A stretch of 64,000 nt of DNA from Nitrospirota bacterium (GTDB lineage: Bacteria; Nitrospirota; Thermodesulfovibrionia; Thermodesulfovibrionales; SM23-35), in the NCBI GenBank assembly GCA_013388435.1, contig JACAFE010000034.1, forward strand, positions 476-64,475. The letters run 5' to 3'. Each line of letters begins with the position of its first letter. The stretch's first letter is position 1. Shown one piece after another: positions 21,490 to 43,292 of the stretch. The translations under genes and the position numbers were made by a program. Under the pieces are notes generated by a model, which did no database searches, was not told where the DNA came from, and worked only from the letters and a program-made list of their open reading frames with translations.

Positions 21490-21862
21490 GAAATAATGCA
21501 GATGTTGCGAAATTGAAAAATGCTGAAGGCTGAAGTATGAACTAATTTCTATTTTGTTAAGGGGTATTAGGGGTCGTATATTACTTTGTAATTTTGTTGT
21601 TTACTTATACTTCAGCCTTCGGCCTTCTTTTTGTGCGCATTTCGCTTTGCAGTTTTAATTAAACGCTTAACACGATGAACGCAAAAAACGCAACAAACGC
21701 TATAACGCTATAAACGCTATAACGCAATAAACACTATAACGCAATAACGCTATAAACGCTATAAACGCAACAAACGCTTTTTGCCTTCAGCATTAGATAG
21801 TTTATTTTGTTTCATAATTTTAATCATTAACATTTTATAATGTTATTATTGGGGTTATAGTC
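21490..21862. repeat. Mosaic intergenic repeat element, copy A (inverted relative to copy B)
   Basis: Terminus GAAATAATGCAGATGTTG (21490-21507). Inverted pair GCTGAAGGCTGAAGTAT (21522-21538) and ATACTTCAGCCTTCGGC (21607-21623). It also holds a CCCCTTAACAA-type module, TGCAGTTTTAATTAAACGC, a tandem array, GCTTTTTGCCTTCAGC and a TAGTTTATTTTGTTTCATAA module. Confidence 0.85.
21661..21778. repeat. Tandem 8-9 nt array (complement of GCGTT(T)AT(T/A)), about 12-14 units
   Basis: Read directly: ...ATGAACGC AAAAAACGC AACAAACGC TATAACGC TATAAACGC TATAACGC AATAAACAC TATAACGC AATAACGC TATAAACGC TATAAACGC AACAAACGC. Confidence 0.9.
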
Positions 21863-25345: not shown

Positions 25346-25708
25346 TGAATAATGCAGACATAGTTCATAGCTCATAACAAGGCTAAAGGCAAAAAGCGTT
25401 TATTGCGTTATAGCGTTTATTGCGTTTATAGCGTTATTGCGTTATAGCGTTTGTTGCGTTTTTTGCGTTATTGTGTTTAATTAAAACTGCACGGAGCACG
25501 GCGCAACAACAAAGGCAAATAACAACCCCCTAACCCCCTTAACAAAGGGGAAATCTGGCAAATAGCTAAGAGCAAAGAGCGAATAAAAAAGGCTGAAGCC
25601 AAATAGATAAGAGAAAATAACTTTTTACTTATGAGCGAAGCTCATACTTCAGCCTTCAGCCTAAAGCCTTCAGCCTTTTATGAGAAATGTCTGCATTATT
25701 TGGGTTAA
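25346..25708. repeat. Mosaic intergenic repeat element, copy B (complete, with terminal inverted repeats)
   Basis: Left end AATAATGCAGACAT..CTCATAACAAGGCTAAAGGC (from 25348). The right end GCCTTCAGCCTTTTATGAGAAATGTCTGCATTATT (25666-25700) is its reverse complement and is followed by TGGGTTAA. Confidence 0.85.
25396..25472. repeat. Tandem 8-9 nt array GCGTT(T)AT(T/A), 9 units
   Basis: GCGTTTATT GCGTTATA GCGTTTATT GCGTTTATA GCGTTATT GCGTTATA GCGTTTGTT GCGTTTTTT GCGTTATT, followed by GTGTTTAATTAAAACTGCA. Confidence 0.9.
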
Positions 25709-39512: not shown

Positions 39513-39592
39513 TAAATTATTTGTAGTTTATCTTTCTTTTTGCTATACTTTAACTAAATATAATAATTTAACCCGAAAAAATGGAGGATAAT

Positions 39593-40021
39593 ATGAAAAA
39601 ATTAATAGTAGCTTTTATTATTGTTTTAGTATTCAGTCTTACAGCTTTTGCACAGACAGGAATGATGGGTCAGGGCATGCAAATGGGTAATACTCAGCAG
39701 ATGCCCATGATGCAATGTCCAAAAATGCAAATGATGCATGGCCAGGGAATGATGCAGGGCCAACAAATACAGGCAACTCATTGTCAGGAAATGATGCAGA
39801 TTATTACTAATTTAATTTCTATGCAAGAAAAAATTGTTTCAGGAGTAAAACCCGAAGAAAAAGACAAAATGTTACAGGAAATAAAAGAAATGAAAGACAG
39901 GGTTCAAAATATGGCTAATATTTGCAAATGCATGATGCAAATGCAACCATCCGCTCCCCAGTCTCCTGCAACTGACGTCCCTGGCACACAGACACCCTCA
40001 CCTTCAGAGCACAAACATTAG
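39593..40021 (+). CDS. Exported Met/Gln-rich protein, putative periplasmic Cu(I)-binding protein
   Basis: Start ATG 39593 behind GGAGGA, with signal peptide MKKLIVAFIIVLVFSLTAFA. The mature part is packed with M, Q, H and C (GMMGQGMQMGNTQQMPMMQCPKMQMMHGQGMMQG...CKCMMQMQ). It lies upstream of copA. Confidence 0.6.
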   Translation: MKKLIVAFIIVLVFSLTAFAQTGMMGQGMQMGNTQQMPMMQCPKMQMMHGQGMMQGQQIQATHCQEMMQIITNLISMQEKIVSGVKPEEKDKMLQEIKEMKDRVQNMANICKCMMQMQPSAPQSPATDVPGTQTPSPSEHKH

Positions 40022-40066: not shown

Positions 40067-40134
40067 TAACTCATACAGGGTAACCCAAAAATACAGACAT
40101 TGCTCATAGCTCATAAAAAGGCTGAAGGCAAAAA

Positions 40135-40274
40135 GCGTTTATTGCGTTTATTGCGTTTATTGCGTTTATTGCGTTAATGCGTTTATTGCGTTATTGCGTT
40201 TATTGCGTTATTGCGTTTGTTGCGTTTATAGCGTTTATAGCGTTTATAGCGTTATTGCGTTTATTGCGTTCATC
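40135..40274. repeat. Tandem 8-9 nt array GCGTT(T)AT(T/A), 16 units
   Basis: 4x GCGTTTATT, GCGTTAAT, GCGTTTATT, GCGTTATT, GCGTTTATT, GCGTTATT, GCGTTTGTT, 3x GCGTTTATA, GCGTTATT, GCGTTTATT, GCGTTCATC. The array resumes at 40384-40407 after the hairpin insert. Confidence 0.9.
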
Positions 40275-40280
40275 AAATTT

Positions 40281-40375
40281 AATGCTTCGCATTGGAAGTG
40301 AGACCCGCTTTGCGGGTCTGGAATTGAGTGCCGAAAAACGGCACTGGAAGTTAGTCGCTCTGGCGACTGGAATTT
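40281..40375. other. Array of four unrelated stem-loops, each followed by GGAA(G/T)T (candidate structured RNA or protein-binding module)
   Basis: AATGC-TTC-GCATT GGAAGT; AGACCCGC-TTT-GCGGGTCT GGAATT; AGTGCCG-AAAAA-CGGCACT GGAAGT; AGTCGC-TCTG-GCGACT GGAATT. All stems are perfect Watson-Crick. Confidence 0.5.
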
Positions 40376-40634
40376 GTCAAACTGTTTATTGCGTTTATTA
40401 CGTTTATCAAATAGCAAAGAGCAAATAGCGAATAAAAAAAGGCTGAAGCCTAAAGCCTTCAGCCTATGATAGTTTATTTTGTTTCATAAATTGAGTTATT
40501 GCAAGTAAACAACTATCTAATCTCCATGACAAAGGAGGAGCAAAAGGGAATTGTTATCGGAAAATAAATTTACAACATCTGCACTATTTCAATTGTATGT
40601 TTATGGTTAACCCAATTTATTTAAAAGGAATATT

Positions 40635-43292
40635 ATGCAAGTAATAGATCCTGTATGCAAAATGATGATTGAGGATTCGGAAGCAGCTGGTAATACTGTT
40701 TATAACGGTAAGACTTATTATTTTTGCAATCCTGTATGTAAAGAAAAATTTGATAAAAATCCCGGGCTTTATCTAAAAGCAGAAGATTCGGATCAAAAAA
40801 AGCTTAAGGTTTTCACACCAATTTTAAAGATCAAGAGCTCTTCAGATACCATTAATAAAGAGGAAACAAGCGTTAAAAAAGAGCGTGACTATGTTTGCGG
40901 CATGACAGTTGATATTAATACTGATCTCAAGTATGAATATAAAGGAAATACTTATTATTTCTGCTCATCATACTGCCTTGATAAGTTTAAAAAAGAACCG
41001 GAAAAATATTCAGGAGACAGAGGTAGAAAAATTTCCGATATACCAGAGGATAGACTTACATGTCAAGGCTATACATGTCCAATGCATCCTGAAGTAAAAA
41101 AAGAAAAAATGGGTTCATGTCCTGAATGTGGGATGGCATTGGAACCCATTTTGTCTTCTACTGAGCTAACAAAAACTGAATGGATATGCCCAATGGACCC
41201 TGAAGTTGTCAGTGACCGACCAGGGAGTTGTCCGAAATGTGGTATGGCGCTTGAGCCGAGAGTTGTAACTCTGGAAGAAAAAGAAAATCCTGAACTCATA
41301 GATATGAGTAAAAGGTTCAAAATCAGCACAATATTAACAATTCCCATCATTTTTATTGCAATGCATCATATGATACCCGGGGTTTCACTTGAACATATAA
41401 TTGATATTGACTTATTAAGAATGCTTGAACTCGTATTTGCTACCCCTGTTGTCCTCTGGTGCGGGTTACCTTTCTTTATACGTGCATGGAATTCAATTCT
41501 AAACCGCAGTCCGAATATGTTTACACTTATCGGACTGGGTGTTGCGGTAGCTTATATTTACAGCCTGGTTGCTGTTTTATTTCCCACGATATTCCCCGAA
41601 TCTTTCATAGAATCCAATGGAAAGATTGGAGTTTATTTTGAAGCTTCGGCAGTAATAATTACTCTTGTTCTCCTTGGCCAGGTGCTTGAACTTAAAGCAA
41701 GAGGGAAAACAGGCGCTGCTATCAGAGCTTTACTCGGGCTTGCTCCCAGAACAGCACGAAGAATTAATAATGATGGCTCAGAAGAAGATGTACAAATAGA
41801 GATAGTTAAACCAGGAGATATATTACGCATCAGGCCAGGTGAAAAAATTCCTGTTGACGGGATTGTCACTGAAGGAACGAGTTTAGTAGATGAATCGATG
41901 ATCACAGGTGAACCTGTTCCAGCAGAAAAACAACCGGGTGATAAGGTTGTTGGAGCTACTATAAATACTACAGGCACACTGGTTATAAAAGCTGAAAAAG
42001 TAGGAGCCGACACTCTTCTTTCTCAAATTGTTAATATGGTTGCCGAAGCTCAGAGAAGTCGTGCACCAATACAAAAGCTTGCAGATATTGTTGCAAAATA
42101 TTTTGTATATATTGTAATTTCAGTTGCTTTCGTTACTTTTATAATCTGGTCTGTATGGGGTCCGGAGCCGCGTTATGCTTATGCGATTATTAACTCAGTC
42201 GCTGTTTTGATAATAGCATGCCCATGCGCTCTTGGATTAGCAACTCCAATGTCAATAATGGTTGCAATGGGCAAAGGTGCAACAGCAGGTGTTCTTTTTA
42301 AAAATGCAGAGTCTATAGAAATAATGAGAAAAGTTAATGTCTTAGTTACCGATAAAACAGGTACTATTACAGTCGGGAAACCCGAGCTTGTTAGAATAAT
42401 TCCTGTTCATGGATGGGATGAAAATAAAGTGCTTTATTATTCAGCAAGTCTTGCAAAAGGCAGTGAACATCCCTTGTCAAATGCAATTGTTATTGAAGCC
42501 GAAAAAAGACAGATTAAACTAACGAAATCCGAATCATTTAATTCTATCACAGGCAAAGGAATAACAGGCCAGATTGAAGGACATGAAATCGCTCTCGGCA
42601 ATCTGGGCTTGTTGGATGAACTCGGAATCAATGTTAGGGAATATTTAGAAATAGCAGAACAAATGAGATCAGAAGGCATAACGGTTATATTTCTTGTGTG
42701 CGATGGTAGCATCACAGGAATTATCGGGACTTCTGACAAATTAAAACAAACTTCTGCATCAGCGATTGAACAACTTCACAGAGAAGGGATTAAAATTATA
42801 ATGCTTACAGGAGACAGCCGCACTACTGCTGAAGCTGTTGCAAAGAAACTCGATATAGATGAAGTTATTGCAGAAGTTCTACCCGAACAGAAAGTTATGG
42901 AAATAAAAAAATTACAGGATAAAGGATTTATTGTTGCGATGGCTGGGGATGGCATAAATGACGCTCCTGCTCTTGCCCAGGCACATGTTGGGATTGCAAT
43001 GGGAACAGGAACAGATGTGGCTATGGAAAGTTCTCATATAACACTTGTAAAAGGAGAGCTGACCGGTATTGTCAGGGCAAGAATTCTAAGTAGAGAAACC
43101 ATGAAAAACATCAAACAAAACCTTTTCTGGGCGTTTGTTTATAATACAATAGGAGTCCCGGTTGCAGCAGGAATTCTTTATCCATTTCTGGGAATTCTCC
43201 TAAGTCCAATGATTGCTGCTGCTGCAATGAGTTTTAGTTCTGTCTCAGTAATAGGCAATGCTTTGCGTTTACGAAGGATAAAATTAAAATAA
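40635..43292 (+). CDS. copA: Copper-exporting P1B-type ATPase with 2 TRASH/YHS and 2 CPxHP..CPxCGM N-terminal metal-binding domains
   Basis: 885 aa. TRASH-like DPVCKMMI...[12 protein letters not shown] and DYVCGMTV...[12 protein letters not shown]. Then [21 protein letters not shown] and [21 protein letters not shown]. Transmembrane CPC ([12 protein letters not shown]), phosphorylation site VTDKTGTIT, and hinge [10 protein letters not shown]. Confidence 0.9.

Follow-up and report, generated by a model that had tools for sequence, protein, structure and literature searches.

Within the 64,000-nucleotide stretch of Nitrospirota DNA analysed here (the window), the intergenic region between a gene for a Met/Gln-rich exported protein and copA is occupied by a mosaic repeat element, placed by read depth at ~40090-40520. 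The upstream ORF (39581-40021) encodes a 146-aa product for which neither a Pfam search nor an exact-protein look-up gave a match; it is represented in two hot-spring metatranscriptome contig sets at a depth of ~10 and is therefore expressed in situ. On the other side, copA (40635-43292) codes for a CopA-type P-type ATPase whose N-terminus carries two YHS and two HMBD domains and no classical HMA domains. Depth was read from public hot-spring metagenome runs that contain the window, and in one of them, run X2 (1.5 Mb of contigs in total, with flanks identical to the window, and so probably the data set of origin), it climbs from 18 to 100-830 precisely over 40089-40520.

The element is built of several modules. 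Its left part is a plus-strand (GCGTTTATT)n minisatellite of 15.6 units (40135-40270; TRF score 209) that serves as the host array of a structured module of four hairpins and, in agreement with the initial annotation of this locus, is interrupted by these hairpins and continues on their far side (40384-40407, plus strand, by TRF). Another module is a terminator-like hairpin followed by a T-run, found by consensus scan on the minus strand (40440-40465). The module to the right of it (tagtttattttgtttcataa..., 40467-40520) is, at ~45-fold, the most deeply covered part of the element in X2 and therefore spreads partly independently of the four-hairpin block. Homologous blocks of the mosaic element lie elsewhere in the window at 21520-21820 and 25360-25680; the other two window arrays (21660-21777, reversed, and 25395-25479) lack the four-hairpin block, as had been noted, the covariance model described below having its single window match in the third.

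The read-out of the four-hairpin block given originally is matched to the letter: at 40281-40375, four perfect hairpins with stems of 5, 8, 7 and 6 bp are each followed by GGAAKT, and the linkers alternate between GGAAGT (at 40294 and 40346) and GGAATT (at 40320 and 40369). On the plus strand, hairpin 1 (AATGC-TTC-GCATT, 40281-40293) leads into joint 1 (GGAAGTg, 40294-40300), whose GGAA and following AG are invariant or almost so; hairpin 2 (AGACCCGC-TTT-GCGGGTCT, 40301-40319) leads into joint 2 (GGAATTg, 40320-40326), hairpin 3 (AGTGCCG-AAAAA-CGGCACT, 40327-40345) into joint 3 (GGAAGTt, 40346-40352), and hairpin 4 (AGTCGC-TCTG-GCGACT, 40353-40368) into joint 4 (GGAATT, 40369-40374). Three of the four stems start with AG and end with CT, as can be read directly in the window. 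We retain the orientation in which the module was first described; it is probably the minus strand that folds, and there hairpin 1 becomes AATGC-GAA-GCATT (AATGCGAAGCATT) and contains GCGAAGC. The complete module, by the limits of covariance model R1, extends over 40270-40384 on the plus strand (143.5 bits, E = 4e-47, the sole match in the window).

The block stands out from its surroundings in several respects. Of the 65 plus-strand GGAAKT sites in the window (35% GC), only five directly follow a perfect hairpin of at least 5 bp; four of these five are the block, whose four GGA motifs are spaced 23-26 nt apart between the hairpins. Compared with dinucleotide shuffles, the MFE of the 115-nt stretch has a z-score of -5.0 on the plus strand and -5.3 on the minus strand, and 0 of 200 shuffles folded as well. 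The MFE fold also includes a closing helix, CAAATTT/GAATTTG, which was dropped: both of its sides are constant A/T words and its pairing is missing in distant relatives. In one subfamily of copies the module is bordered on both sides by TTTATCAAA, which could be a target duplication or merely a variant array unit; in the window the left border reads ATCAAA and the right one GTCAAA (40264-40279 and 40375-40387), and a second subfamily is without the TTTATCAAA borders. The four-hairpin module was found to have no terminal inverted repeats, and runs X1 and X2 yielded no empty-site or excision polymorphism of the block, read joints changing only the length of the 9-mer array.

Read depth and homology searches establish that the module is repeated many times. 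In X2 the single-copy flanks have a depth of 18 and the block one of 381-389 (~21-fold), with a 59-nt contig identical to 40280-40338 at 160; in X1 the flanks are at 10.2 and a 71-nt contig identical to 40288-40358 is at 422. From the ratio of block to flank depth, the source organism therefore has ~20 copies of the block (~21 by X2). A degenerate pattern in which only the linkers were fixed gave 121 matches in 100 metagenome loci. Model R1, built from six copies (one seed, L045mod, was padded by 1 base for loop length in alignment A2, which leaves the real sequences that were scored unaffected), then recovered the further (hairpin)-GGAAKT arrays for which the initial annotation had proposed to look: related contigs from hot springs and sediments (0.71 Mb) contain 143 copies, and the window contains exactly one. 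Nearly every copy sits inside (GCGTTTATW)n arrays of the same orientation, and 3 of 124 fall inside a long ORF call.

The genomic contexts of the copies are unrelated, since 113 neighbouring proteins form 100 clusters, and the block is not locus-specific, because a 74%-identical homologue of the upstream Met-rich gene at another locus (L122) is not followed by the repeat. The block is a copy of a dispersed repeat module and not a conserved gene at a fixed locus. What had been taken for an insertion peculiar to one of the three arrays of the window is instead a standard optional module, present in the same position within 9-mer arrays at >100 other places. With high confidence, then, the block can be described as one copy of a ~115-nt structured module belonging to a family of dispersed intergenic repeats, non-coding and mosaic in build, found in hot-spring and sediment bacteria. 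Within the main family, the upstream gene lies on the opposite strand in 44 copies versus 18 and the downstream gene on the same strand in 37 versus 14; flanking genes tend to point away from the module, and convergent-gene spacers account for 0 of 31 copies. Copies located tens of kb apart on one contig of 38-270 kb mostly share an orientation (4 of 4 on Ga0315298_1000048 and on _1000073, 3 of 3 on _1000149 and on _1001817, 3 of 4 on _1000225, and 2 of 3 on _1000028; minority 3 of 23, simulated P = 0.02, on the assumption that fetched loci retain the orientation of their contig), which hints at a replichore-scale strand bias; array orientation showed no relation to the local coding strand or to GC skew. 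At L047 (4689-5083), the module together with about four 9-mer units forms a higher-order tandem, repeated three times with a period of 140 nt.

Selection for structure and not for sequence, suggested initially from the four stems of the window, now holds across the 143 copies and extends to distant relatives with unrelated stems. Perfect hairpins make up 53 of the 76 distinct segments between linkers, against ~0.7 expected from shuffles, and 94% of stem positions in these segments are Watson-Crick paired, versus 44% in shuffles. The 143-sequence alignment was fitted to the R1 structure, which favours that structure in pair counts; 98.2% of its pair cells are standard pairs and both sides vary in 22 of 26 pairs, values attained by 0 of 500 column shuffles. 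As a control, sliding the 3' partner lowers pairing to 23-41%. All five pairs of hairpin 1 covary across copies. Hairpin 2 exists in subfamilies with AGACCCGC/GCGGGTCT or AGACCTGC/GCAGGTCT stems, one pair being U-A in 64 copies and C-G in 39; hairpin 3 exists as AGTGCCG/CGGCACT, AGTACCGC/GCGGTACT or AGTAACGC/GCGTTACT, with one pair that is G-C in 50 copies, A-U in 48, C-G in 6 and U-A in 6. Intermediates with a single stem mismatch occur only as singletons, in contrast to the abundant compensated forms. Loops are free to drift, and at hairpin 4 at least 11 loop forms sit on a stem that is kept; the TTC loop of hairpin 1 is kept in distant relatives.

Covariation is absent from the linker and from the A-U and G-C pairs that open helices 2-4 at their foot, so the conserved unit is an 11-nt joint, CT-GGAAKTK-AG, carrying replaceable hairpin cores. 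This sequence-invariant joint consists of the last two and the first two stem bases plus a 7-nt single-stranded linker. Distant loci preserve the same architecture with wholly different stems, one in a reference genome (L015) and others in metagenomes (L040, L042, L057, L083, L094 and L115). The pattern scan of reference genomes returned mostly simple satellites, e.g. (GGAAGTTAGAAGCT)n, with L015 as the only true analogue and the window's own genome not among the matches.

Of the designations available, the REP-like hairpin cluster that the initial annotation had held in reserve is the closest, given the ~21-fold depth, the 143 copies in related contigs and the conserved hairpin potential. Taken as a whole, the block is best explained as a REP/BIME-like structured module of a mosaic dispersed repeat, a call that, together with the mechanism suggested below, we judge to be evenly balanced. 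REP, BIME and REPIN elements, with their RAYT transposases, are known from Enterobacteria and Pseudomonas (PMC3116915, which also mentions the small dispersed repeats, or SDRs, of cyanobacteria). Like the module, they are short, GC-rich extragenic hairpins that occur in tens to hundreds of copies, grouped into mosaics whose linkers are conserved, and their stems retain the ability to form hairpins, as predicted for ssDNA or mRNA; their clusters adjoin a particular single gene, the same logic as in the link to PF05635 genes considered below. There are also differences. A REP family has one shared stem sequence, inverted pairs and a 5' GTAG-type tetranucleotide, whereas the module has four unrelated stems in direct tandem and a conserved CTGGAAKTKAG. 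The gene partner of REPs is a Y1/HUH transposase (RAYT), whereas the recurrent linked gene here belongs to the four-helix-bundle family PF05635, and no RAYT (Y1 transposase) gene was noticed among the loci. Also unlike REP/BIME elements, the module is embedded in 9-mer minisatellites and avoids convergent 3' spacers.

A strand-specific signature bears on the level at which such a module might act. Among 120 distinct perfect hairpins, the tip reads SCGNAGS in 18 cases on the minus strand versus 2 on the plus strand, and relatives carry CCGAAGG tips on the minus strand. GCGAAGC and CCGAAGG are hyperstable DNA mini-hairpins contained in single-strand initiation signals, namely phage G4-type origins and ssiA of RSF1010 (PMC13037366). 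The module resembles these signals in presenting a row of short hairpins on one strand, with tips that are exactly GCGAAGC (window, minus strand) or CCGAAGG (relatives), and the function of the signals depends on the folded single strand. They are, however, unique sites at phage or plasmid replication origins, whereas the module is chromosomal and multi-copy. The array minus strand is the operon sense strand in PF05635 loci. Mismatch counts (G-T versus A-C, 6 versus 11 and 5 versus 11 in two counts) separate neither the two strands nor RNA from DNA. Taken together, tip signature, gene orientation, absence of RNA and copy orientation lean towards a DNA-level fold of the minus strand; hairpins located between genes or where genes end might equally well act in RNA.

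The mechanism that we favour, tentatively and by analogy with REPIN-RAYT systems (PMC3116915), is that the module works in single-stranded DNA as a protein platform. The module would fold as a single strand, most likely as minus-strand ssDNA exposed during replication or transfer; the minus-strand tips would form mini-hairpins of the C-GNA-G type known from single-strand initiation signals; a putative protein may read the repeated joints as its recognition word; and the repeat element would thus have in the module a cis-acting platform that supports its spread or maintenance. A CsrA sponge has no place in this scheme.

A role at the RNA level, also of REP/BIME type, is an unlikely competitor: hairpins in UTRs and spacers would act as barriers to 3'-5' exonucleases, cause pausing or partial termination of transcription, or insulate genes, and the joints would bind an RNA-binding protein. 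Arrays at L142, L144 and L015 start a few nt from the stop codon of a co-transcribed gene, inside operons, which is the classic site of mRNA-stabilising stem-loops; both strands form stable hairpins, and a terminator-like hairpin is also part of the mosaic element. Against this, the initial annotation had proposed looking for a transcript across the block, and no contig of at least 85% identity exists in four very small metatranscriptomes of the same study, two of which cover the adjacent Met-rich ORF of the same organism at a depth of ~10; a search of RNA runs for block words or a PF05635-linked copy likewise gave none. Moreover, G-U does not outnumber A-C on either strand, the C-GNA-G triloops of the tips are of DNA type, unlike UUCG or GNRA tetraloops, and main-family copies avoid convergent 3'-3' spacers, their flanking genes pointing away.

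The distant relatives introduce a protein family into this picture. At most of their loci the array adjoins a small ORF of the opposite strand, at its 3' end; the ORF matches PF05635 (23S_rRNA_IVP; E = 1e-28), with a weak bAvd match. When loci were picked by protein homology alone, an array was again present on the opposite strand, at the stop codon or overlapping the 3' end of the gene, in 6 of 6 distinct loci (L139/L140, L141, L142, L143, L144 and L145-L147), with R1 E-values of 1e-10 to 1e-16; this association covers one PF05635 clade, of 65-95% identity. Such loci often have further arrays upstream of the gene, as well as nearby 9-mer minisatellites of related type (GGTTTSTTT, GAGTTTATT), and the PF05635 genes are inserted co-directionally within operons. 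In L142, for example, the start of the PF05635 gene overlaps the stop of an upstream epimerase gene within a polysaccharide operon, and the array that follows the gene (2399-2750) comprises three to four head-to-tail copies with a period of ~117 nt. In L141, L143 and L145, PF05635 genes and arrays lie among small genes of the same strand (PIN, DUF2283, UPF0150/HicB-like), a layout reminiscent of a cassette array. The window has no PF05635 gene, and most main-family copies have none nearby.

A general link between satellites and PF05635 found no support: among 38 satellite loci, only L023 and L029, which carry the same gene, have PF05635 nearby. At these two loci, from Bacteroidota MAGs, a hairpin-less (CTGGAAGTTAGAAG)n satellite (1803-2277 in L023 and 14-481 in L029) lies 30-60 nt upstream of the PF05635 gene on the same strand, and the 11-mer of this satellite recurs exactly as the joint that separates hairpins 3 and 4 in the window.

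Avd, a relative of PF05635, binds nucleic acid and reverse transcriptase. These observations admit another explanation, which overlaps the REP/BIME-like reading and which we consider improbable: the arrays would border small mobile cassettes that carry PF05635 and sometimes toxin-antitoxin genes, and would be bound or processed by an Avd-like protein or a recombinase, the ~20 gene-less copies being non-autonomous. At L113 and L139, a PF05635 gene has arrays in direct orientation to either side, and the array-gene junction is conserved between very different organisms. The PF05635 family, called functionally uncharacterised in the literature, inserts promiscuously, being scattered within operons, in insertions of rRNA genes and in cas loci (PMC3936711 for cas loci). 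Most copies of the module, however, are without a PF05635 gene nearby, the loci revealed no recombinase or integrase, the association is confined to the one clade, and rows of mini-hairpins differ from the single long imperfect palindrome of an integron attC. A bolder and comparably doubtful formulation makes partners of PF05635 proteins and the hairpin-joint arrays, the arrays being the cis-acting nucleic acid; the protein, or an enzyme recruited by it, would then read the CT-GGAANNN-AG joints on folded ssDNA or RNA and thereby mobilise or maintain cassettes and their gene-less derivatives.

It is very unlikely that the module lacks function altogether, its hairpins being a by-product of repeat generation (e.g. 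fold-back synthesis or gene conversion among copies) and passively carried. Recent spread could explain much of the apparent conservation, given that copies from the same community share >90% identity, and the module is tandemly duplicated in L047 and L142; yet perfect hairpins and the same joints persist in lineages with completely different stems, forms with a single mismatch are rare singletons against abundant compensated ones, and loops diverge freely while stems do not.

The reading preferred in the initial annotation, in which the block is a transcribed CsrA/RsmA-titrating sRNA whose four inter-hairpin GGA motifs sequester CsrA dimers, can be set aside as extremely improbable: it accounts for the conserved structure and for four GGA motifs that alternate with stable hairpins every 23-26 nt, but not for ~20 dispersed copies per genome in unrelated intergenic regions, embedded in minisatellites, nor for a conserved word that is the 11-mer CUGGAAKUKAG, stem bases included, and not a CsrA-type loop motif. 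CsrB, RsmY and RsmZ do share repeated GGA motifs interspersed with hairpins; these, however, lie mostly in hairpin loops and belong to single-locus, highly expressed sRNA genes, whereas here GGA forms part of the invariant inter-hairpin joint of a dispersed repeat. In the window all GGA motifs are in linkers and the loops are TTC, TTT, AAAAA and TCTG; across the family, 1 of 120 distinct hairpins has a GGA loop. The four small metatranscriptomes contain no RNA contig over the block, the tip signature is specific to the opposite strand, and read-through RNA of PF05635 loci would carry UUCC and not GGAA, because the array is antisense to the adjacent gene. By tblastn with approximate E. coli and B. 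subtilis queries, CsrA had no match in the window and 1 Mb of related contigs. Rfam 15 gave nothing at the gathering threshold and no CsrB/Rsm model at E up to 10, the best match being DUF2693 at noise level (27 bits against a cut-off of 81).

Returning to the view of the block as a REP/BIME-like module, other families of bacterial repeats provide partial precedents. The STRR heptamer arrays of cyanobacteria are intergenic short tandem arrays with nested small structured repeats in which compensatory changes have been reported. The nesting of very small structured repeats in short tandem intergenic arrays is common to STRRs, SDRs and the present family, whereas the phylum differs and the unit sequences are unrelated; to our knowledge, no four-hairpin architecture with constant joints and no link to PF05635 has been described for STRRs or SDRs. 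BOX elements of Streptococcus pneumoniae and Correia/NEMIS elements of Neisseria are modular, MITE-like repeats bounded by terminal inverted repeats with target duplications. They too are mosaics of optional modules, non-coding and dispersed in intergenic DNA, but neither type of boundary was found for the four-hairpin module. Integron attC sites are like the module in that it lies downstream of small ORFs in some loci; they differ in being a single long imperfect palindrome with RYYYAAC/GTTRRRY cores, whereas the module consists of four separate mini-hairpins without such cores. Tandem hairpins with constant GGAA joints and a PF05635 link correspond to no Rfam 15 family and are not described in the literature searched (on four-helix-bundle/IVS repeats and on Thermodesulfovibrio repeats and CsrA).

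By itself, the block would be one more bacterial intergenic repeat, and three features lift it above the routine. The first is its clean architecture of constant 11-nt joints and freely replaceable cores, which points to recognition of shape plus a short word and makes the module family a ready-made natural experiment in compensatory evolution. The second is that hyperstable DNA mini-hairpins form a strand-specific signature, and this in a thermophile. The third is the reproducible physical link to genes of PF05635, a family without known function. For annotation, the dispersed nature of the module carries a warning that a single hairpin-rich intergenic region in these genomes is poor ground for calling an sRNA gene. 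For the protein family, the link between arrays and genes supplies a concrete candidate ligand for homologues of the DGR accessory protein Avd; if the proposed partnership is true, it would represent the first function for the widespread and promiscuously inserting PF05635 proteins outside diversity-generating retroelements, and a new kind of bacterial mobile cassette.
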